This document shows, one piece after another, positions 876 through 49,350 of a stretch of 64,000 nt of DNA. The notes beneath the pieces were generated by a model. That model was not told the origin of the DNA and did not search any database. It saw only the letters and a list, made by a program, of their open reading frames with translations. This DNA is from Dehalococcoidia bacterium (GTDB lineage: Bacteria; Chloroflexota; Dehalococcoidia; CAUJGQ01). Location: positions 21,479 to 85,478 of the forward strand of contig DATGEL010000120.1 in the NCBI GenBank assembly GCA_035310145.1. Reading direction: 5' to 3'. The first letter of the stretch is position 1. Each line of letters begins with the position of its first letter. A program made the position numbers and the translations under genes.

Positions 876-1319
<444 letters not shown>

Positions 1320-1484
1320 GACTCACCGTCCATTCCATCAGTCGAAGCCTGTATCCGCATCGTCGGGCATCGTCCCGCGGCGACTCAAGTCGTCGCCGAT
1401 GCACGACGCAGCAACTCGGCGTTCGGGGTATCCTGAGGCTAAGACCGGCAGCGTGGCAGCGCCGAGGCCGGCAGGAGGCATTGC

Positions 1485-1985
1485 ATGGCCGAAGACCTGG
1501 GCCTTGAGCCGTTCGAGTCGGACCCGCAGCTCGCCGATCTGCCGGCGGAGAAGGTCGCGAAGGCGTACGCCGGCGCAAAGCGTATGTCCGAGAAATACGT
1601 CGAGCGCGGGCCGTACGTGTTCATGCCCGATGCCGTCACCGTGGAGCTTGTGCAGCGCGGGCTGGCCAAGAACGAGCTGCTGAACGGCAAGCGTTACTGT
1701 CCATGAATGACCATTTCAGGCGATCCCGACGAGGATCGCCTGAAGATCTGTCCGTGCGACAGACACCACGAGGACATCGCCCGCGACGGGTTCTGCATCT
1801 GAATGTTCTTCGTCTCGAGCGAGTTCGCTCGAAAGTACGAAGCCGGCGAAGAGTTCGGCAGCACCCTGGACCAGGTCGTGGAGCACGGCGAGAGCCTGTT
1901 CCCGGCTGCGCATGACTCGGAGGCGCAGCGCGAGTCCAAGTCGCAGCGGGCCGAGCGCGCCCGCGGGCGCAGCAGCGACGGCTGA
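1485..1985 (+). CDS. FTR catalytic subunit-like candidate selenoprotein, read through two in-frame TGA codons (1704-1706 and 1800-1802)
   Basis: Three ORF-track pieces (1485-1706, 1707-1802, 1803-1985) share one frame. Joined translation: ..KRYCP-U-MTISGDPDEDRLKICPCDRHHEDIARDGFCI-U-MFFVS.. aligns to FtrC motifs CPC/CPC/CHC with the TGAs at the 2nd Cys of motifs 1 and 3. Strong SD AGGAGG 6 nt before ATG 1485. Hairpins start 12-13 nt after each TGA. Confidence 0.55.
1719..1740 (+). promoter_or_regulatory. candidate bacterial SECIS-like hairpin for first UGA (GGCGATCC-cgacga-GGATCGCC)
   Basis: Perfect 8-bp GC-rich stem beginning 13 nt 3' of TGA 1704-1706, inside the coding frame. Confidence 0.4.
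1815..1832 (+). promoter_or_regulatory. candidate bacterial SECIS-like hairpin for second UGA (TCGAGCG-aguu-CGCTCGA)
   Basis: 7-8 bp stem beginning 12 nt 3' of TGA 1800-1802; same spacing as the first. Confidence 0.4.
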
Positions 1986-2320: not shown

Positions 2321-2518
2321 ATGCAGATTGACCCGTGCCGACTGTGCGGCGAACCGGCGCTGGAACGAACCGCTGTGCGCCGCGCCAGCGTTGCCGAGAG
2401 GACGGCCGAGTTCTTGCGCGTGCCGCTCTGCGAGCCGCACCGGCAGTGGCTGCACCGCGGCGGAAAGTCGGGCCGGCTTCTCGCGGATGGCTCGATCTGG
2501 TGGTTGGCTGAGGAATGA
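2321..2518 (+). CDS. hypothetical small Cys/His protein (CxxC..CxxH)
   Basis: 65 aa ORF with ~85% GC3 consistent with coding; CRLCG..PLCEPH; no family recognised. Confidence 0.3.
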   Translation: MQIDPCRLCGEPALERTAVRRASVAERTAEFLRVPLCEPHRQWLHRGGKSGRLLADGSIWWLAEE

Positions 2519-2625: not shown

Positions 2626-5136
<2,511 letters not shown>

Positions 5137-18005: not shown

Positions 18006-18033
18006 GGGGCCAGGCTGGCCCCCAGTTTGTTAT
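18006..18033 (+). terminator. intrinsic terminator/attenuator-like hairpin upstream of infC
   Basis: GGGGCC-aggcu-GGCCCC followed by CAGUUUGUUAU, a rare U-rich tail in this genome. Confidence 0.45.
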
Positions 18034-18053
18034 GTCAGAAAAGGGGAGCGCGT

Positions 18054-18668
18054 ATCAGCCGCGAATACCGCATCAACGACCGGATTCGAGCGCGTGAGGT
18101 TCGCCTGATCGGAGAGAACGGCGAGCAGCTCGGCGCGGTGCCGCTGTTCAAGGCGCTGGAGATGGCGCGGGAGGCCGGACTGGATCTCGTCGAAGTCGCG
18201 CCGTCCGCCGTGCCGCCCGTCTGCCGGCTGCTGGACTACGGCAAGTTCAAGTACGAGCAGGCCAAGAAAGAGCGCGAGGCCCGCAAGCACCAGAAGAACG
18301 TGCTGCTGCGCGAGATTCGCATGGAGCCGAAGATCGCCGAGCACGACGTGGACTTCAAGCTGCGCACGGCCGAGAAGCTGCTCAAAGAGGGCGACAAAGT
18401 TAAGATCTCGGTGCGCTTCCGCGGGCGCGAGATTACGCATCCGCAGATCGGGCGCGACCTGCTGGAACAGGTGTACGGCAGGTTGAAGACGATCGCCAGC
18501 ATCGAGAAGCCCGTGGGCATGGAAGGGCGCCAGATGACGATGATCCTGACGCCCGGCGCCGCCAAGCCGGAGAAACCGCAGCGGCCGCCGGCTGCCGCGG
18601 CGCGCCCGGTGGAGTCGGCGCCGGCGGCGCCCGCCGAGCCCGCCGTCGTCGCGCCGACGAGCGAGTAG
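18054..18668 (+). CDS. infC: translation initiation factor IF-3 with non-AUG (AUC) start
   Basis: ISREYRINDRIRAREVRLIGENG.. canonical IF-3 N-terminus; AAGGGGAG SD 5 nt before ATC 18054; no in-frame AUG/GUG at suitable spacing (infC classically uses AUU/AUA/AUC). Confidence 0.8.
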   Translation: MSREYRINDRIRAREVRLIGENGEQLGAVPLFKALEMAREAGLDLVEVAPSAVPPVCRLLDYGKFKYEQAKKEREARKHQKNVLLREIRMEPKIAEHDVDFKLRTAEKLLKEGDKVKISVRFRGREITHPQIGRDLLEQVYGRLKTIASIEKPVGMEGRQMTMILTPGAAKPEKPQRPPAAAARPVESAPAAPAEPAVVAPTSE

Positions 18669-18727
18669 CGGAACAAGAGTCGGTTGCAGCAGCGGCGCGC
18701 ACCAGTGCAGCCGCGGGAGTGGTTTGC

Positions 18728-18931
18728 GTGCCCAAGCTGAAGACGCACAAAGGCGCCAAGCGCCGCTTCAAGATCACGGCCACGGGCAAAATCCTGCGCA
18801 TGGCCGGCAACAAGCGCCACCTCAAGGCGTTCAAGAGCAAGCGCGCCCTGCACAAGGACGACAAGCAGTTCGAGGTCACCGGCGGCATGCGCGCCAAGAT
18901 GAAGCGCGTGCTGCCCTACGGACGGATGTAG
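18728..18931 (+). CDS. rpmI: 50S ribosomal protein L35
   Basis: GTG start 8 nt after GGGAG; (M)PKLKTHKGAKRRFKITATGKI.. Confidence 0.85.
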   Translation: MPKLKTHKGAKRRFKITATGKILRMAGNKRHLKAFKSKRALHKDDKQFEVTGGMRAKMKRVLPYGRM

Positions 18932-19007
18932 CGAACTGGCCCGCGCGCCACGGCGTGAGCGGGCGAACCCGTAAGCGCATCGCCTGAGCGAACGAAGGTA
19001 GGACAGC

Positions 19008-19367
19008 GTGAGTCGAGTGAAGCGCGGCGTGGCGGGGCACGCCCGGCACAAGAAGCTCCTGGACCTGGCGAAGGGCCACAAGGGGCAGCGTCATCGCCTC
19101 TTCCGCCGCGCCAACGAGTCGGTGCTGCACGCCCTGCAGTACGCCTACCGCGACCGCAAGGACCGCAAGGGCGACTTCCGCGCGCTCTGGATTATGCGTA
19201 TCAACGCCGCCGCGCGGCTGCATGGCACGACGTACAGCCGGCTGATGCACGGCCTGAAGGCGGCCGGTATCGCCGTCGATCGCAAGATCCTGGCCGACCT
19301 GGCCGTTCGCGACGACGCGGCCTTCGCCAGGCTCGTCGAAACGGCGGGCGAATCGGCGCGGGCCTGA
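19008..19367 (+). CDS. rplT: 50S ribosomal protein L20
   Basis: [23 protein letters not shown].. canonical L20; AAGGTAGGA SD. Confidence 0.9.
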
Positions 19368-40141: not shown

Positions 40142-40516
40142 CTACTGCAGGCGGGCCACCAGGTCGGGACGCAGGACGCGGGCGCCGCGGATGTAGACGT
40201 GCGTCACTTCGCGCGCCGACTTCTCGGTGTTGACGTGCAGCAGGATGCGCAGGCACATGCCGAGGCTGCCGGGCACGTCCAGCTCGTGCGCGCAGACGAG
40301 CGGCACTTCCGTCCAGCCCATACGCCGCGCGGCCACGGCCGGAAACTCGGCGTTGAGATCCGTGGTCGTGGTGAAGAGCGCGCTGGCCACGTCGTCTGGA
40401 TCGATGCCGTTGCGCTCGATCATGAGCTGCAACAGCTCGGTGGTCGCGGCCAGGATCTCGTCGCGTGCGTTGCGTTCGACCGTGGTGGCGCCCTTGATGC
40501 CGCGGCATACCGTCAT
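40142..40516 (-). CDS. aroH: chorismate mutase, AroH class
   Basis: 124 aa, near full-length match to monofunctional AroH (..RGIKGATTVERN..RVLRPDL..). Confidence 0.85.
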   Translation of the reverse strand: MTVCRGIKGATTVERNARDEILAATTELLQLMIERNGIDPDDVASALFTTTTDLNAEFPAVAARRMGWTEVPLVCAHELDVPGSLGMCLRILLHVNTEKSAREVTHVYIRGARVLRPDLVARLQ

Positions 40517-40658
40517 GAACCCGCCCCTGTGCAGCGTCGGTGCAGTGTGCGCCGTGCGTCAGGCAGGTCCAAAGACGCCGGCCGCGGAGGCGTCAGCGTA
40601 GGCGCGGCCGGCAGAACCCATGAGCGCCCGCGGCGCCCGGCTCTGCACGGCCGGAACC

Positions 40659-41456
40659 TCAGCTCCTCCTGCGACCGGTGACGACCTCCACATACTCCCG
40701 AACCTTAGCCACGCGCTCGTGAGGCGCAGCGTTATCGATCTGATCGATAATTGCGCTGCCGATGACAGCAGCTTCGCACAGTTGCCCGATGCGCGCAACG
40801 TGCTCCGGCCGCGAGACGCCAAAACCCACTGCGAGCGGTAAACGGATCTGTTCGCGTACGCGGGCGATGAACGCCGGCAGTTCCGCCGGCAGATCGCCGC
40901 GCGCCCCTGTTGTGCCGGCGACGCTGACGCAGTAGACGAAGCCGCTGGCCGCCTTCGCCACGGCGGCAAGGCGATCGGCGCTGCTGGTCGGCGCGACGAG
41001 AAAGATCAGGTCGAGCTCCAGCGGCCGCGTGACCGCCAGGAACTCCTCGGCCTCTTCCGGCGGCAGGTCCACGGCGATGAACCCGTCGATGCCGGCTTCC
41101 GCCGCGGCTCTGGCGAAGGTCTTGAGGCCCGCGGCAAGCCAGGGGTTGTAGTAACCCATCAGCAGCAGCGGCAGCGTCAGACCGCGCTCGCGCAGCCGCC
41201 GCGCCACGTCCAGGCAGGTCCAGGGCGTGACACCCTGCCCCAGCGCCTGCCAGCCGGCGCGCTGGATCGTGGCGCCGTCCGCCAGCGGATCGGAGAAGGG
41301 CACGCCCAGCTCGATCGCGTCCGCGCCGCCCGCGGCCAGCGCCTCTACCAGCTCGACGGTGCTGGCAACGTCTGGATAGCCCGCCGTGATGAATGCCACC
41401 AGCCCGGTGCGGCCCTCGGCCTTCAGCCGCGCGAACGTCGCGGCGATGCGGCTCAT
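40659..41456 (-). CDS. trpA: tryptophan synthase alpha chain
   Basis: GGAGGGG SD; ..GLVAFITAGYPD..IELGVPFSDPLADG.. Confidence 0.9.
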   Translation of the reverse strand: MSRIAATFARLKAEGRTGLVAFITAGYPDVASTVELVEALAAGGADAIELGVPFSDPLADGATIQRAGWQALGQGVTPWTCLDVARRLRERGLTLPLLLMGYYNPWLAAGLKTFARAAAEAGIDGFIAVDLPPEEAEEFLAVTRPLELDLIFLVAPTSSADRLAAVAKAASGFVYCVSVAGTTGARGDLPAELPAFIARVREQIRLPLAVGFGVSRPEHVARIGQLCEAAVIGSAIIDQIDNAAPHERVAKVREYVEVVTGRRRS

Positions 41457-41489
41457 CGATTTCCCCTCCATCACACGGTCGCGCGGGCC

Positions 41490-42242
41490 TCATTTGCCGG
41501 CGAAGGCGATCACAACGCTGACGAGATTGAACAGGCAGTGGGCGCCGATGTTTGCCCAGAGCGTGCCGGCGCGGTAGTAGGTCCAGGCGAGGATCACGCC
41601 GATCACGGTGAAGGGAATGATCAGCGTGCCCTGCTGGTGCGCCAGCGCAAACAGCAGGCCGCTGAGCGAGGCTGCGCCGCTGAAGCCGAGGCGCCGGCGC
41701 AGCCCGTTGAAGATGAAGCCGCGGAAGAACGTCTCCTCCACGATCGGCGCCGCGATCACGGTCAGGAGCGTGGCCAGGGGGATCGTCGCGGCGTGCTCAA
41801 AGATGCCTTGCGGCACATTGTCCTGCGGATAGAGCCAGTGCAGGCCCGGAATCTGCGTGAGGCCGATGTAGCCGAACAGCGCCACATAGGCCAGCACCCA
41901 CGCCGCGAACGTCCATCCGGCCCAGCGGCCCGGCGGCCGCCAGCGGTAGCCCAGCAGGCCGAGCCCGCCGGGGAAGCGGCCGACGCTGAAGCTGAGGGCC
42001 ACGCCGAACAGCGCGGCTTCGAACAGCAGCGTCAGCAGCAGGCTGAGCACGAGGCCGTTGACGGAGTCGGTCGCCGTGCCCGTGCCGCTGACGATGATCG
42101 CAAGGGCTAGGCCCAGCAGCAGGAAGGCGGCAATCACCGCGCCCACCCCCGCCAGGCACTGGCGCCAGTCCCACGGCGGCAGCGGCAACTCGCCGTCGCG
42201 CGGCCGCGGCGCGGGCGTTGGGTCGGATGAATCCTCGCTCAC
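41490..42242 (-). CDS. CPBP (CAAX protease/Abi) family intramembrane metalloprotease
   Basis: GTG start 8 nt after trpB stop; EETFFRG..FALAH..TL.. CPBP motifs; sits between trpB and trpA. Confidence 0.65.
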   Translation of the reverse strand: MSEDSSDPTPAPRPRDGELPLPPWDWRQCLAGVGAVIAAFLLLGLALAIIVSGTGTATDSVNGLVLSLLLTLLFEAALFGVALSFSVGRFPGGLGLLGYRWRPPGRWAGWTFAAWVLAYVALFGYIGLTQIPGLHWLYPQDNVPQGIFEHAATIPLATLLTVIAAPIVEETFFRGFIFNGLRRRLGFSGAASLSGLLFALAHQQGTLIIPFTVIGVILAWTYYRAGTLWANIGAHCLFNLVSVVIAFAGK

Positions 42243-42250
42243 GCCGTGCC

Positions 42251-43459
42251 TCACAGCGGCAGACCGAGGGCGGTGGAGACCGTGTCCATGTCCTTGTCGC
42301 CGCGGCCGGAAAGGTTCACCAGCACGATCTGCTCGCGGGCAAGCGCGGGCGCCAGCTTCGCGGCGTAGGCCAGCGCGTGCGACGATTCGAGCGCCGGAAT
42401 GATGCCCTCCGTGCGGCACAGCATCTGGAAGCCTGCCAGCGCCTCGGCGTCGGTGATCGAAACATACTCCGCCCGGCCCGTGTCCTTATAAAAGCTGTGC
42501 TCCGGGCCGACGCCGGGATAGTCCAGGCCGGCAGAGATGCTGTGTGTCTCCGTGATCTGACCGTTCGCGTCCTGCAAGAGATACGAGCGGGCGCCGTGCA
42601 GCACGCCCGGCCGGCCGGCGACCAGGGTGGCCGCATGCTTGCCCGTCTCGATGCCGCTGCCCGCGGCCTCGACGCCGACGAAGCGCACCGTGCGGTCCTC
42701 GTAGAAGGGATGGAAGAGGCCGATCGCGTTGCTGCCGCCGCCCACGCAGGCCACCGCGTAGTCGGGCAGCCGCCCTGCGGCCGCCAGGATCTGCTCGCGT
42801 GCCTCGCGGCCGATCACCGACTGCAGGTCACGCACCATCACGGGATACGGGTGCGGGCCGGCGGCGGTGCCGAGCAGGTAATACGTGGTGGCGACGTTGG
42901 TCACCCAGTCGCGCATCGCCTCGTTGATTGCGTCCTTCAGTGTGCGGCTGCCCGTCGTCACCGGGCGCACCTCGGCGCCAAGCAGTTTCATGCGCGCCAC
43001 GTTGGGCGCCTGGCGGTGAATGTCCTGCTCGCCCATGTAGACCACGCAGTCGAGGCCGAGCATGGCACAGACGGTGGCCGTGGCGACACCGTGCTGACCG
43101 GCGCCCGTCTCGGCGATCACGCGCTGCTTGCCCATGCGCTTCGCCAACAAGCCCTGCCCCAGCGCGTTGTTGATCTTGTGGGCGCCGGTGTGCGCCAGGT
43201 CCTCACGCTTCAAAAAGATCCGCGCCCCACCGAGGCGGTGAGTAAACGACTCGGCGAAGTAGAGCGGCGTCGGCCGGCCGACGTAGGTACGCAGCAGGTG
43301 CGCAAGCTCCTGGCGGAACGTCTCATCCCGCGAGAACTCGCCGTATGCCCGCTCCAGCTCAATCACGGCCGACATCAGAGTCTCGGGCACGAAGCGCCCA
43401 CCAAACTCGCCAAAGCGCCCGCGCTCGTCGGGCCGTGCGCTGTCAGGGGTTTGAACCAA
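42251..43459 (-). CDS. trpB: tryptophan synthase beta chain
   Basis: TTG start 6 nt after AAGGAG; [16 protein letters not shown].., PLP Lys in ..HTGAHKINN.. Confidence 0.9.
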
Positions 43460-43608
43460 CGGATGCTCCTTGCCGCGGCGGATGAACGTTCGAGTGCGAG
43501 GCCGCCACGGACGAGCCCGCGGTTCCCGGCGGAGCAAGCAGCCGGCGTCCCGGTGCGGCGCCCCGCGCATCGCGCCCGTCCGCGCAACGGGCCGTACACG
43601 TACGGCCG

Positions 43609-44370
43609 CTACCGTCCCTCTGCTGCCGATCGCGCGGCGTCGGCGGCGCGGACGGCGGCGACGAACGCGCGCATCTTCTCTGGATCCTTGGCGCCGTCGC
43701 TCTCGATGCCGCTGCTCACATCGACGCCCCAGGGTCGTACGCAGGCCACCGCCTTGCCCGCGTTCTCCGGCGCCAGACCGCCCGCGAGCAGGAACGGCAG
43801 GCGAGAGCTGATTTCGATCGCGAGTGTCCAATCGAACCGCTGGCCCGTGCCGCCGATCTCGCCGGGTACGGCGGTATCGAGCAGGCAGAGCGCGGCGGTT
43901 CCGGCTTCGGCCGTGTCGAGCGCGGCCTCGGGCGTCAGCTCGGGCCGCACGTGCAGCGCCTTGATCACCGGGCGGCGAATCTCCAGCGCCTGCTCCCAGG
44001 GACCGGTGCCGGAAAGCTGGACCAGGTCGAGTGGCACCGCGGCTGCCACGGCATTGATCAGCGAGGTCGGCTGGTCTCCGAACACGCCGACCACAAGCGG
44101 GCGCCGCTCCGAGAGCGCAAGCGCCAGGGCGGCCACACTCCGCCGGAACCAGGCGCCGGCCGGCACCGCGTCGTGGACAAGCCGCGTCAACGTTCCCGCG
44201 CCGGGGCCGAGCCCTTCCAGCACCCGCCGCGCCTGCTCGACCGTGACGCGCCGGCGGCTGCGTTCAGCGAAGACGAGGCCGATGAAGTCGGCGCCGAGCG
44301 CGGCGGCGAGTTCCGACTGCTCGGCGCTGCGCAGGCCGCAGAGCTTGATGCGGGTGTGCAAGGCGGTCAT
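43609..44370 (-). CDS. trpF: phosphoribosylanthranilate isomerase
   Basis: IKLCGL.. TIM-barrel PRAI. Confidence 0.8.
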
Positions 44371-45206
44371 GCAGGCATGAACTCCCGCATCTTCGCGACC
44401 ACGTCGCTCGCCGTCATCAGCGCCTCACCCACCAGCACCGCGTCCACGCCGAGGGATCGCACTCGCTGCGCCTCGGCCGCGCCGGCAAGGCCGCTCTCGC
44501 TGACCACGACCGTCCGCGCCGGAATCAGCGGGCGCAGGCGTTCTGTTACGTCAACGGACGTATGAAAGGTGCGGAGGTCGCGGTTGTTGATGCCGATCAC
44601 CGCGGCGCCGGCGGCCAGAGCCCGCTCGACCTCGCCCTCGTCGTGGACTTCGACCAGGGCGCTCAGGCCCAACTCCCGAGCCAGCGCCAGCAGTTCGATC
44701 AGGAGCTCATCCGGGAGGATAGCCACGATCAGCAGCACGGCGTCGGCGCCGTAGGCACGCGCCTCGTGCAGATGATACGGGTCGAAGAGGAAATCCTTGC
44801 GCAGCAGCGCCGGCCGGCCGCCGGGGAAGTAGCGGTCGAGCCCAATGCGAATACTCTCCAAGGATTCGAGCGTGCCCAGAAAGTGCGGCGCCTCGGTCAG
44901 CACCGAGATCGCCGCCGCGCCGCCGAGCGTGTAGGCGCGGGCGCGGCTGAGCGGGACGAGGTCGGGGTCGAGGATACCCTTGGCCGGCGACGCCTTCTTG
45001 ATCTCCGCGATCAGCCGCAGCCGTGTGCCGCGCAGGGCGGCGGGGAAGTCCAGCGTCTCCGCGAAGCGCTGCGCCTTGTCCGCGAGCCGAGCGAGCGGCT
45101 CCTCGCGACGTCGGCGGGGCAGCTCCTCACGCTTGGCCGCGACGATCTTGTCGAGGATCGTGCCGGTGACGAGGGTGGAATCCGTGGTCACGACGGTTCG
45201 CCTCAC
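44367..45206 (-). CDS. trpC: indole-3-glycerol phosphate synthase
   Basis: ..LIAEIKKASPAKG..; ATGA overlaps with trpD and trpF. Confidence 0.85.
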   Translation of the reverse strand: MRRTVVTTDSTLVTGTILDKIVAAKREELPRRRREEPLARLADKAQRFAETLDFPAALRGTRLRLIAEIKKASPAKGILDPDLVPLSRARAYTLGGAAAISVLTEAPHFLGTLESLESIRIGLDRYFPGGRPALLRKDFLFDPYHLHEARAYGADAVLLIVAILPDELLIELLALARELGLSALVEVHDEGEVERALAAGAAVIGINNRDLRTFHTSVDVTERLRPLIPARTVVVSESGLAGAAEAQRVRSLGVDAVLVGEALMTASDVVAKMREFMPA

Positions 45207-46231
45207 TCCGTTCCCGGTGCGTGCCGCTGCGAGGCCTCGACGAATCGCTCGGCGGTGCGCCCTGCTTCTCCAGTGTCGATCAGCCTGGCAGCTACGGTCA
45301 CGCCCTCGGCGATGTTCGCCGCCGCGCCGCCGACGATCAGCGCCGCGGCCGCGTTGAGCAGCACGAAATCGCGGATCGGCCCCGGCCGGCCCTCGAAGAC
45401 GGCATGCATCGTTTTCGCGTTGTCGACCGGGGCGCCGCCGTGCACCGCGGCGCGCGGCGCCGGCTCAAGCCCCGCGTCGTTCGGCGTGACGCGGTAGGTC
45501 GCCAGCGTTTCGCCCTTCAGCTCGCAGACCAGCGTAGGGCCGGCCAGCGTCAGCTCATCGATGCCGTCTTCGCCGTGCACGACCAGCGCGTGACGGCAGC
45601 CGAGCCGGCCGAGCACGGCGGCCATCGTCTCCACCAGCTCGGGCCGCGGCACGCCGAGTACCTGCGCCTGCGCCCCGGCCGGGTTGGAGAGCGGGCCGAG
45701 AATGTTGAAGACTGTGCGCACGCCGAGGTCGCGGCGGGTGGGCGCGGCGTGCTTCATTGCCGGGTGAAACGCCTGCGCGAACATGAAGCCGAAGTTGCTC
45801 TCGTCGATGCAGGCGGTCACGCCCTCGGGCGCCAGCTCGATGCGCGCCCCCAGCGCCTCGAGCACGTCGGCGCTGCCGCAGCCGCTGCTCATCGCGCGGT
45901 TGCCGTGCTTGGCCACGCGCACGCCGCCGGCCGCGGCCACGAGCGCCGCTGCCGTCGAGACGTTGAACGAACCGGACCCGTCGCCGCCGGTGCCGCAGGT
46001 GTCGATCAACGGACCGGGATGCTGCACGCGCAGCGCCCGTTCGCGCATGATCCGCGCCATGCCGGCGATCTCGTCCACGGTTTCGCCCCGCAGGCGCAGC
46101 GCCGCCAGCAGGGCGCCCAGTTGTGCGGGTGTGGCTTCGCCGGCCATGACCTCGGACATGACCGCGGCGGCCTCGTCCTCGCTCAGGTGGCGGTCATGAT
46201 TAATCAGCGCATCCAGCGCCTCGCGGATCAT
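45203..46231 (-). CDS. trpD: anthranilate phosphoribosyltransferase
   Basis: ..IDTCGTGGDG..KHGNRA.. motifs. Confidence 0.9.
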   Translation of the reverse strand: MIREALDALINHDRHLSEDEAAAVMSEVMAGEATPAQLGALLAALRLRGETVDEIAGMARIMRERALRVQHPGPLIDTCGTGGDGSGSFNVSTAAALVAAAGGVRVAKHGNRAMSSGCGSADVLEALGARIELAPEGVTACIDESNFGFMFAQAFHPAMKHAAPTRRDLGVRTVFNILGPLSNPAGAQAQVLGVPRPELVETMAAVLGRLGCRHALVVHGEDGIDELTLAGPTLVCELKGETLATYRVTPNDAGLEPAPRAAVHGGAPVDNAKTMHAVFEGRPGPIRDFVLLNAAAALIVGGAAANIAEGVTVAARLIDTGEAGRTAERFVEASQRHAPGTE

Positions 46232-46307
46232 CGCATAGATTCCTCTCTGAATGGGTGCGGCCTACCGGGTCGCGGCGTGCGCCGCGCCGGGCGGGCGCCA
46301 CGCGCCC

Positions 46308-46892
46308 CTAGGCGACCACTGCCGCTTCATCCATCGCCAGGAAGTTCCTCAGCAAGTCCTTGCCGTTCGGCGTCATGATCGATTCCGGGTGAAACTGGAT
46401 GCCCTCGACGGCAAAGCGCCTGTGGCGCACACCCATGATCACGCCGCTCTCGCTGCGGGCGCTGACCTCCAGTTCGTCGGGCACGCTGTGAGGGCTTACG
46501 GCGAGCGAGTGGTAGCGGATCGCCTCCATCGGGTCGGGCAGGCCGGCGAAGACGCCGCGGCCGTCGTGGGAGATGCGCGACAGCTTGCCATGCTTGATCT
46601 CGCCCGCGCCCTCGACCACGCCGCCGAATGCCTCGCCGATGCACTGATGCCCAAGGCAAACGCCGAGCAAGGGCACACGGCCGGCGAAGCGCTTGATCAG
46701 GGCAACGCTGATCCCCGCCTCCTTCGGCGTACACGGACCGGGCGAGATCACGATCCGCACCGGCGCCAGCGCCTCGATCTCGTCAAGCGTCGCCGCGTCG
46801 TTGCGCACGACGTGCACCTCCGCACCCAGCTCGCACAGATACTGGTAGAGGTTGTAGGTGAAGCTGTCGTAGTTGTCGATCAAGAGCAGCAT
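46308..46892 (-). CDS. trpG: anthranilate synthase component II (class I glutamine amidotransferase)
   Basis: [22 protein letters not shown] catalytic triad region. Confidence 0.85.
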
Positions 46893-46912
46893 CGCCGCGT
46901 CCTTGTCCGGCT

Positions 46913-47875
46913 TCAGTTCACGCGCGCGTCTTCCAGCTCGGCCACGATCAGCGCCGCCGTCTGTTCGGGCGTCAGCCCCGTGCTGTCAAGCTTCATGCCG
47001 CGCAGCTCGCCGTTGAGCCGCATGATGGCGTCGAGCTCGGCGCTGCGCTCGCCCATGCGCTGGTCCTCGGGCCGTGCCTGATCGCGCCGCAGCAATTCGT
47101 CCAGCCGCGGCGCCAGCGTCACAAAATAGGTCTCGATCGGGCCGAGCGCCTCCAGCAGTGTGTCCAGCTCCTCGGGCGACTCCAAGACGCCTTCGATCAC
47201 GCAGTCGACGCCCTCGGCCGTAAGGTTTCGGGCCAGCGCCGCCGCGTTGCGCAGGCCAAGGAGAATCTGGCGGCGGGCGGCCCCCGGATCGGAGCCATCC
47301 CAGTCCGGCGGCACGCCGCCGCGCACGAAGATGTCCCAGCCGAGGTAGTCGAGCGCGACCAACGCGCTGCGCTCGCTCTGTTCCGCGACCAGCCGTCCGA
47401 CCGTGCTCTTGCCGGCGCCCGCCGCGCCCGTGATGACAATCACCTTGCCCGCTCGCCCTTCCGGCGGCTCGTCGGCACGCGGCCCCGACGCGATGCCCAG
47501 TGCAGCATGCAGCGCCTCGCTCAGGTCAGCCGGCAGCGCAAGCTCTGTTATGGATGGCAGAGGCACCCACACCGGCACGCCGCTGCCGGGCGATCGGTGG
47601 GGCGCACCCTCCCACCGCGTCACAAGCTGAAGATTGTTCAGCCGCACGCCGCCGTCGGCAGCGCGCTCGTAGAACGTGTCGATGAAGCTCTGCTCCGACA
47701 CGGTGATGCCCAGGGTTTCGGCGAGGAACTCGGCCAGCGCCTCTTCGATCTCGATCGCCTCGCGCAGCGGGACACGGGGCAGCGCCAGACCGACGCCCGC
47801 TTCAGCGCCCTCCTTCTGCAGGAAGAGCAGCGAGGCGCCGTCGCTGATCGCCGCCGTGATCTCGATCTCCGGCAT
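46913..47875 (-). CDS. two-domain protein: N-terminal domain of unknown function plus C-terminal P-loop NTPase/kinase-like domain, embedded in trp operon
   Basis: 320 aa; Walker [18 protein letters not shown], Walker-B-like VDCVIEGV; start overlaps trpE stop (TGATG), ends 20 nt before trpG. Confidence 0.6.
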
Positions 47876-49350
47876 CAGTAGCCCAGGCTCCCGCTGGGCA
47901 GCGCCTCAAGCTGCTGCTCGGCCAGGTCGATGGCGCGGATCAGGGCGCGGGCCTTGCTCAGGCACTCCTGGTGCTCGGCCGTCGGGTCGCTGTCGAAGAC
48001 GATGCCCGCGCCAGCCTGCGTGTAGGCCACGCCGTCCTTCATCACCAGCGTGCGGATCGTGATGCAGGTATCCAAATTGCCGTTGAAGCTGAAGCAGCCG
48101 ACGGCGCCGGCGTAGGGTCCGCGCCGGTCCGGCTCCAGCTCCGCGATGATCTCCATCGCGCGGATCTTCGGCGCACCCGAGACGGTCCCGGCGGGGAAGC
48201 AGGCGCGCAGTGCGTCGTAGGGCGTCAGGTCGTCGCGCAGCTGGCCGGTGACGTGCGAGACCAGGTGCATGACGTGCGAGTAACGCTCGATCTCGAACAT
48301 CTGCGTGACGCGCACGCTGCCCGGCCGCGCCACGCGGCCGACGTCGTTGCGGCCCAGGTCGAGCAGCATCGTGTGCTCGGCCAGCTCCTTTTCATCGTGG
48401 CGCAGCTCTTGCTCCAGCCGCTGGTCCTCCTCGAGATCGTGGCCGCGCGGGCGCGTGCCGGCGATCGGGTGCGTCTCCACCAGCCCATCTTCGACGCGCA
48501 CCAGCATCTCCGGCGAGGCGCCGACGATCTCAAAGTCGCCCAACTCCAGGTAGTACATATAGGGCGAGGGGTTGACCTGGCGCAGGGCGCGGTAGACCTC
48601 GAAGGCGGGCGCCGGTGTGCTGCGCGCCAGCCGCTGCGAGAGCACGCCCTGGATCACGTCGCCGGCGACGACATACTCCTTCGTCGCCAGCACGCTCGCT
48701 TCAAAACCCTCGCGGCCGACGTTGGACTCGACGCGGCCGTTCAGGTGCAACTCGCCTTGAAGGCGCGGTGTGTAACGCAGCGGCTGCTGCAGCCGCTCCA
48801 CGATCTGGTCGATCTTGAACTGCGCCAGGCGGTAGGCGGCGTCGATGTCGCCGTCCAGCCGCACGTGGCTGACGACCTTGATGCGATGCCGCAGGTGGTC
48901 GAAAACGAGGATCGTGTCCACGAACAGCAGCATCGCTTCGGGCAGGCCGAGTTCGTCTGCCTCGGGCACGGGCAGACGTTCAAAGTAGCGGGCCGCCTCG
49001 TATGAGAGATAGCCGACGGCGCCGCCGTCGAACGGCGGCAGATCGCCGACGGCCACGACCTTGAAGCGCGACAGCTCCTCTTCGAGCAGGCGCAGCGGGT
49101 CGATCTCGCAGCCTTCGCCCGGCCCCGTGCGCACGATGCGGTACGGCTCCGTGCCGATGAACGAGTACCGCGAGAGCCGCTCGCCGCCCTCGACGCTTTC
49201 GAGCAAGAAGGAGTGCCGCCCGCGCCGCACCTTGAGGAAGGCGGACACCGGCGTATCGAGGTCGGCCGTCACCTCACGGTAGATCGGCACCAGGTTGCCC
49301 GCGCCCGTGGCGGCCAGCTCGCGCACATCGGCAAGAGAAGGAAAATACAC
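47875..49350 (-). CDS. trpE: anthranilate synthase component I
   Basis: GTG start; ..NLVPIYREV.., chorismate-binding C-terminal domain. Confidence 0.9.
   Translation of the reverse strand: MYFPSLADVRELAATGAGNLVPIYREVTADLDTPVSAFLKVRRGRHSFLLESVEGGERLSRYSFIGTEPYRIVRTGPGEGCEIDPLRLLEEELSRFKVVAVGDLPPFDGGAVGYLSYEAARYFERLPVPEADELGLPEAMLLFVDTILVFDHLRHRIKVVSHVRLDGDIDAAYRLAQFKIDQIVERLQQPLRYTPRLQGELHLNGRVESNVGREGFEASVLATKEYVVAGDVIQGVLSQRLARSTPAPAFEVYRALRQVNPSPYMYYLELGDFEIVGASPEMLVRVEDGLVETHPIAGTRPRGHDLEEDQRLEQELRHDEKELAEHTMLLDLGRNDVGRVARPGSVRVTQMFEIERYSHVMHLVSHVTGQLRDDLTPYDALRACFPAGTVSGAPKIRAMEIIAELEPDRRGPYAGAVGCFSFNGNLDTCITIRTLVMKDGVAYTQAGAGIVFDSDPTAEHQECLSKARALIRAIDLAEQQLEALPSGSLGY

Follow-up and report, generated by a model that had tools for sequence, protein, structure and literature searches.

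In the catalytic subunit of classical ferredoxin-thioredoxin reductase (FTR), Cys55, Cys74, Cys76 and Cys85 ligate a [4Fe-4S] cluster and Cys57 and Cys87 form the redox-active disulfide. These roles are consistent with the description given by Zhang and Gladyshev (PLoS Genet 2008; PMC2398784), who found homologs of the FTR catalytic subunit in the Global Ocean Sampling (GOS) metagenome and reported them as a new family of selenoproteins. In a 2026 review (PMC13188914) the family is listed as NF041072 with the motif CxU and two selenocysteines (Sec), and the FTR-type selenoprotein family is also listed in a 2022 review. Here, a gene of this type was analysed in a 64-kb stretch of Dehalococcoidia DNA with 69% GC, referred to as the window at its whole length. 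The gene is located at 1485-1985 on the forward strand and was named ftrB-UU. It is very probably a functional double-selenoprotein gene of the FtrB family (NF041072), in which both internal UGA codons are read as Sec, each with its own in-gene selenocysteine insertion sequence (SECIS) stem-loop. The FTR homolog described in PMC2398784 has two Sec at exactly the positions of ftrB-UU. Since the family was reported in 2008 and a model of it exists as NF041072, the FtrB double-Sec family is already known and ftrB-UU is a correct rediscovery. The first-pass annotation of the window had proposed a candidate double-selenocysteine FTR-like protein, and the observation was confirmed and the reading supported; its guarded statement that FTR-like enzymes with Sec had not been described was wrong, as is evident from PMC2398784, the later reviews and the match to NF041072.

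The translation of 1485-1985 (+) resulted in a single frame of 166 codons with only two internal stops, TGA at 1704-1706 (UGA 1) and TGA at 1800-1802 (UGA 2), and with TGA at 1983-1985 as the gene's own terminator. The contexts of the two UGAs in the product are RYCP-U-MTISG and DGFCI-U-MFFVS. A Shine-Dalgarno-like AGGAGG is situated at 1473-1478 (+), 6 nt 5' of the ATG, and the GC content at the third codon position (GC3) was 0.81-0.85 in all three TGA-delimited pieces. The one frame broken by two TGAs, the strong AGGAGG and the retained codon bias had all been described correctly in the first-pass annotation. Both Sec codons directly precede AUG (UGA-AUG) in all orthologs except L081, which has GCC after the second UGA, and due to this arrangement at both sites the pieces of ftrB-UU looked like separate open reading frames (ORFs) started by ATG.

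For the searches with the ftrB-UU product, Cys was written at both TGA positions. The product matched PF02943 (FeThRed_B, ferredoxin-thioredoxin reductase catalytic beta chain) at 1.6e-20, in line with the FtrC-like catalytic core recognized earlier. With NF041072 ("FtrB_double_U: FtrB family double-selenoprotein"), a curated equivalog model with a cut-off of 160 bits, the score was 198.6 bits (E = 2e-59) over model positions 6-121 of 121. The domain, the two Sec positions (C-P-U, C-x-U) and the predicted SECIS after each UGA are the same as in the NF041072/2008 GOS family, and nothing essential differs.

The correspondence of the active-site columns was determined from the phmmer alignment of the ftrB-UU product to PDB 1dj7_A (Synechocystis FTR), in which all the codons named below lie on the forward strand. 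Cys72 (1698-1700), the first Cys of C-P-U and invariant in the alignments, is paired with Cys55 as a predicted [4Fe-4S] ligand; both cysteines of C89-P90-C91 (1749-1757) are paired with the ligands Cys74 and Cys76, and Cys104 (1794-1796) with the ligand Cys85. UGA 1 encodes residue U74, paired with Cys57, the surface-exposed nucleophile of the redox pair, and UGA 2 encodes U106, paired with Cys87, the cluster-proximal member. Because of these two pairings, the TGAs are placed on the columns of the redox-active pair. The resulting motifs are C-P-U / C-P-C / C-I-U with all four cluster-ligand Cys kept, as the first-pass annotation had stated. Ile105 pairs with His86 of FTR, and C-I-U is invariant across the double-U family. 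Cys was found at both TGA columns in the non-Sec homologs P0007-P0024 and in the FTRs of the PDB. An exhaustive search with phmmer, for which an ortholog was the query, gave nearest full-length non-Sec relatives with 45-48% identity and the motifs CPC...CPC...C[E/D/H]C.

The classical FTR catalytic subunit (FtrC/FTRB of cyanobacteria and chloroplasts; 1dj7, 2pvo, 7bzk) shares with the ftrB-UU product the PF02943 fold and the CPC...CPC...CxC spacing. The four Cys ligands of the [4Fe-4S] cluster beside a two-residue redox pair are predicted in the ftrB-UU product as well, and a ferredoxin-to-dithiol relay is its presumed chemistry. In contrast to the classical subunit, the ftrB-UU product has Sec at both redox Cys, its family has an invariant Ile in place of His86 and a family-specific extension of about 45 residues at the C-terminus, and the host belongs to a non-photosynthetic Chloroflexota lineage. 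The classical set of six Cys and His86 (CPC/CPC/CHC) was not found in the product. The similarity is also weak: in the PDB phmmer search the cyanobacterial and plant catalytic chains 1dj7, 2puk, 2pu9 and 7bzk were matched at E of about 1e-3, and the best matches were 4tpu_A and 7pwe_A (E about 1e-9). The FTR variable subunit (FtrV, PF02941) was not evident among the Pfam-scanned immediate neighbours of ftrB-UU, the remaining ORFs of the window not having been scanned.

The two best PDB matches are single-subunit FTR-like catalytic domains of non-photosynthetic anaerobes with a non-His motif 3 (C-Y-C). Chain 4tpu_A, deposited as 'Rubredoxin', is presumably the ferredoxin:disulfide reductase of Methanosarcina acetivorans. 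Unlike the ftrB-UU product, both 4tpu_A and 7pwe_A are all-Cys proteins, and 4tpu has a fused rubredoxin domain which is absent from the ftrB-UU product; the zinc-ribbon-like ORF that follows ftrB-UU at 2016-2276 is unrelated to this domain. A further comparison is offered by the SelL diselenide proteins (UxxU; Shchedrina et al. 2007, cited in PMC2398784), which also have two Sec predicted to form a redox-active diselenide. SelL differs in its unrelated thioredoxin-like fold, in the lack of an Fe-S cluster and in having both Sec within one UxxU, whereas the two Sec of ftrB-UU are 32 residues apart; the SelL family is eukaryotic or aquatic, and its SECIS elements are located in the 3'-untranslated region.

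To describe the conservation of the gene, one genome per GTDB species was scanned. A relative was encoded in 211 genomes, and the best 80 were analysed together with the window and three metagenome contigs, giving a comparison set of 84 sequences or loci. The best 80 of the 211 relatives all belong to Chloroflexota, are mostly metagenome-assembled genomes (MAGs) of Dehalococcoidia and share 54-90% protein identity. TGA was present at both columns in 84/84 sequences, with Cys at neither column and with no other stops, and the 80 species-level genomes thus had TGA rather than TGC or TGT at both positions. Because of this uniformity, the double TGA is far beyond chance. The dN/dS values against the five closest relatives were 0.03-0.24 before TGA 1, between the TGAs and after TGA 2, which therefore indicates that translation continues through both TGAs.

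Within the family the window belongs to a small high-GC group (the window and L004-L008). Compared with the other NF041072-type members, this clade has a 17-residue N-terminal extension, a longer hairpin 1 (13 bp), a hairpin 2 formed from different codons and no adjacent U-G-P-C glutaredoxin-like gene. The genes are represented variously in public records. The protein entries of orthologs P0001-P0004 show W at both Sec sites as the result of a gene call with TGA=Trp, with TGA in the DNA, and the gene calls of L084 and L085 split the ftrB-UU locus into genes of 73 and 60 residues with the middle 31 codons uncalled. For ortholog P0002, modelled with AlphaFold from an alignment of four sequences and with W at the Sec sites, the predicted local distance difference test score (pLDDT) was 53.9; this model was too poor and was not used.

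Putative SECIS hairpins were found after both UGAs. Hairpin 1, assigned to UGA 1, spans 1714-1745 (+) and has a 13-bp stem (1714-1726/1733-1745) closed by the loop CGACGA at 1727-1732. Hairpin 2, assigned to UGA 2, spans 1808-1842 (+) and consists of a 7-bp inner stem (1815-1821/1826-1832), an outer stem (1808-1813/1837-1842) and the loop AGUU at 1822-1825. A hairpin after each TGA had been predicted in the first-pass annotation; the second of them (1815-1832) was exact, and the first (1719-1740) turned out to be the GC-rich core of the longer 1714-1745 stem. The folding energy of hairpin 1 was -23.5 kcal/mol; z was -5.0 relative to dinucleotide shuffles, and comparison with 2000 sequences that encode the same peptide by synonymous codons gave p = 0.0075. 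The corresponding values of hairpin 2 were -17.5 kcal/mol, z = -1.5 and p = 0.08.

By the bacterial SECIS criterion (E. coli fdhF, bSECISearch), the stem-loop should begin at a distance of roughly 10-20 nt from the UGA, and its apical loop should contain a G, which in E. coli fdhF is G23. The stems of the ftrB-UU hairpins begin 7-15 nt past each UGA, and their loop G, counted from the U of UGA, is at +25 (hairpin 1) and +24 (hairpin 2), close to the fdhF distance. This G was invariant in 69 and 72 distinct orthologs, respectively. In hairpin 1 the invariant G1728 is the first base of a codon that varies between V, D, A, E and G, all with G-first codons, and in the loop of hairpin 2 both G1823 and U1824 were invariant in the family. 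The 7-bp core stem of hairpin 1 was 93% paired across the 69 orthologs, and 88% of the cells of the hairpin 2 stems were paired across the 72. Hairpin 2 of the window clade is built from the codons UCG AGC GAG UUC GCU CGA or UCG GAG GAG UUC CUC CGN, compared with AGC GAA GAG UUU CUU CGC in the main clade; with these different codons its register is shifted by one and the same loop is retained. The native fold was better than those of synonymous recodings in 90% of 70 orthologs for hairpin 1 and in 97% for hairpin 2. The invariant loop G, the codon-shifted hairpin 2 and the folding bias of the orthologs point to selection at the RNA level.

Several results weigh against the assignment of ftrB-UU as a double-selenoprotein gene and are considered together. 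Hairpin 2 of the window alone was not significant (z = -1.5), and a synonymous GAU-to-GAC change breaks one pair of hairpin 1 in 26/69 orthologs. No compensatory pair changes were detected at either hairpin by fixed-register covariation counts in the 69 and 72 orthologs; the support for the hairpins therefore comes from sequence and stem conservation and from the codon-choice tests, not from covariation. There was no match to Rfam, SECIS included, with the whole window at the gathering threshold or with 1650-1900 at E <= 10. ARAGORN detected no tRNA-Sec, either in the 64 kb of the window or in any of the 83 related loci, and the motifs of SelA (SGDKxxGGPQ), SelD (GxGCxxK) and a SelB-type GTPase were likewise absent from the window and the 83 loci, as searched with strict regular expressions which divergent genes could escape. 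The searchable literature contained no protein-level or biochemical evidence for the FtrB double-selenoprotein family. Finally, the chemistry may differ from that of classical FTR because Ile takes the place of His86 and a variable subunit was not evident.

That no Sec machinery was seen in the window or the loci bears on the alternative that the UGAs are decoded without Sec, either by a reassigned code that gives Trp or Gly or by near-cognate read-through that gives Cys or Trp, with the result that the protein has no selenium. The public ortholog calls with the TGA=Trp code, which give W at both sites, would agree with such decoding. However, TGA is the commonest ordinary stop in the window, ending 33/55 ORFs including ftrB-UU itself, from which it follows that the genetic code is not reassigned. 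In the closest homologs and the solved FTRs both columns hold Cys, and Trp or Gly there would destroy the redox pair; in addition, conserved hairpins with an invariant loop G follow both UGAs. Other redox genes of the related loci also carry TGA at a CxxC position with a hairpin of their own, and Dehalococcoidia are known as selenoprotein-rich: MAGs with 46-49 selenoproteins are recorded in BSepDB, among the most selenoprotein-rich bacteria (PMC13326102). Decoding without Sec is consequently regarded as improbable. In the window and the L004-L008 loci, no further gene with an in-frame TGA flanked by coding signal was detected.

A second alternative accepts Sec but holds its insertion to be inefficient or conditional, so that mostly peptides of 73 or 105 residues would be produced, the full-length protein would appear only when selenium is plentiful, and the UGAs would act as a selenium-sensing device. 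Two serial UGAs do multiply the chance of termination, and AUG follows both UGAs in nearly all orthologs. Against this, the fold needs all three Cys motifs, the cluster ligands are spread over all three pieces, the last segment is under strong purifying selection, and nothing suggests that the fragments function alone. Such a regulatory role of the UGAs is unlikely, and the preferred explanation remains that of a double-selenoprotein gene translated to full length.

The possibility of a decaying pseudogene, in which the TGC or TGT codons of two catalytic Cys had mutated to TGA by chance, is negligible. A single base change is sufficient for each such conversion, the gene callers split the locus into fragments of 73 and 60 residues, and the adjoining Cys paralog could make ftrB-UU dispensable. 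The explanation is nevertheless effectively refuted by conservation: both TGAs are kept in 84/84 sequences at 54-90% protein identity, a divergence of orthologs that also excludes copies of one contaminating sequence, and dN/dS stays at 0.03-0.24 downstream of each TGA. In addition, ftrB-UU has no further stops or frameshifts, and its protein scores above the curated NF041072 cut-off. The judgement of the first-pass annotation that gene decay was hard to reconcile with the locus was thereby borne out. Sequencing or assembly errors of the contig, a generic concern for metagenome assemblies with nothing specific in its favour here, are hardly worth considering because the identical 501-nt gene recurs in two further records (ENA assembly ERZ27279678 and the Logan assembly of SRR5579859) and every ortholog has the same two TGAs.

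On the basis of FTR homology, a mechanism can be proposed for the ftrB-UU product. Cys72, Cys89, Cys91 and Cys104 would hold the [4Fe-4S] cluster, and Sec74 and Sec106 beside it would form a redox-active diselenide replacing the Cys57-Cys87 disulfide of FTR. The diselenide would be opened by two successive one-electron transfers that reach it via the cluster from a low-potential donor, for which ferredoxin is the most likely candidate. Sec106 would then remain associated with the cluster, and a small redoxin would be attacked by Sec74 at its disulfide or selenylsulfide. A His at the His86 position may be dispensable owing to the low pKa of Sec. In most relatives the redoxin would probably be a U-G-P-C glutaredoxin/NrdH-like selenoprotein, the gene of which is not adjacent in the window.

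This glutaredoxin/NrdH-like gene, encoding about 78 residues, adjoins ftrB-UU in 52/84 loci (within L009-L080, e.g. L009:10219-10460, L040, L065). It is located downstream on the same strand in 43 loci and divergently upstream in 9, and most of the 43 downstream genes overlap the ftrB stop or start within about 50 nt; in 43/84 loci the pair is apparently organized as an operon. The active site is U-G-P-C with TGA in 52/52, and a conserved hairpin GUGAAAG-UGUAU-CUUUCAC is situated 18 nt past the UGA. The protein matched PF00462 at 9e-15 and was below all NCBIfam cut-offs. No description of the pairing between ftrB-UU and the U-G-P-C redoxin was found in the searchable literature. The U-G-P-C protein is likely the substrate redoxin of FtrB-UU. 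A wider proposal, to which we attach somewhat less than even confidence, is that FtrB-UU serves as the reductase of a dedicated, largely selenium-based relay in Dehalococcoidia, in which electrons would pass from ferredoxin to the [4Fe-4S]/diselenide FtrB and further to the U-G-P-C glutaredoxin/NrdH-like selenoprotein. The U-G-P-C gene is adjacent to ftrB-UU neither in the window nor in the L004-L008 clade. If the relay operates, the lineage of the window may have uncoupled the pair, ftrB-UU now standing beside an all-Cys paralog and a Cys-rich zinc-ribbon ORF.

The all-Cys FTR-like paralog lies divergently at 876-1319 (-) and matched PF02943 at 4e-19. Its existence had been pointed out in the first-pass annotation and was verified. 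Its motifs are CPC...CAC...CHC, the first and second of which are set further apart by an insertion of 14 residues, the identity to the joined ftrB-UU product was 28%, and the score to NF041072 was only 36 bits, which places it outside the double-U family. Among the 84 loci it is adjacent to ftrB-UU in the window and L004 only. On the other side, a Cys-rich zinc-ribbon-like ORF of 86 residues with four CxxC-type pairs (2016-2276, +; GC3 0.88) begins 30 nt past the ftrB-UU stop and is possibly co-transcribed with it; the Pfam zinc-ribbon matches were sub-threshold only. This ORF is kept in L004 (80% identity) and in none of the other 82 loci, and an 86-residue gene is called in L084 and L085. 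The zinc-ribbon ORF and the Cys paralog were considered as conserved partners of ftrB-UU and rejected, as their co-occurrence is limited to the window and L004. An ORF of 65 residues with CxxC...C at 2321-2518 (+) is similarly conserved in L004 and in none of the other 82 loci. Pyruvate phosphate dikinase, identified by its Pfam domains at 2626-5136 (+), also neighbours ftrB-UU and is among the neighbours common to the window and L004 only. The scan of 800-2700 for promoter and terminator consensus sequences found nothing, and no clear conserved operator was seen when the intergenic region 1320-1484 was aligned to that of L004.

Further observations concern the related loci and the parts of the window away from ftrB-UU. 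One of them is a second selenoprotein candidate, about 250-260 residues long, in which a glutaredoxin-like N-terminal domain with U-F-S-C (in-frame TGA) is joined to a domain of the DinB family (PF00462 plus PF05163/PF12867). Its gene lies on the strand opposite to ftrB-UU and about 4 kb upstream of it in L016, L027, L029, L030, L034, L040-L042, L044, L045 and L074. The transfer-messenger RNA gene (tmRNA, ssrA) is located 0.7-4 kb upstream of ftrB-UU in L012, L014, L015, L017 and L019 and downstream in L050; this proximity in one Dehalococcoidia sub-clade is probably local synteny. In the window, a tryptophan-biosynthesis gene cluster at 40142-49350 (-) and an infC-rpmI-rplT-like run at 18027-19367 (+) were identified by eye from the ORF translations, and three tRNAs (Val, Gln, Glu) are present. 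The remaining window resembles an ordinary chromosome, with no sign of mobile elements around ftrB-UU.

The present analysis has consequences for the annotation of the family and for its biology. Public gene calls fragment the ftrB-UU genes or translate them with the TGA=Trp code, and the NCBI annotation pipeline can already name the FtrB double-selenoprotein family. The original two-read metagenomic prediction is firmed up, as both UGAs are strictly conserved in at least 80 species of Chloroflexota among the 211 genomes with a match. The frequent operon with the U-G-P-C glutaredoxin-like selenoprotein provides a concrete candidate substrate and a useful lead. Coupled to a [4Fe-4S] cluster, a diselenide would constitute an unusual redox centre of very low potential.

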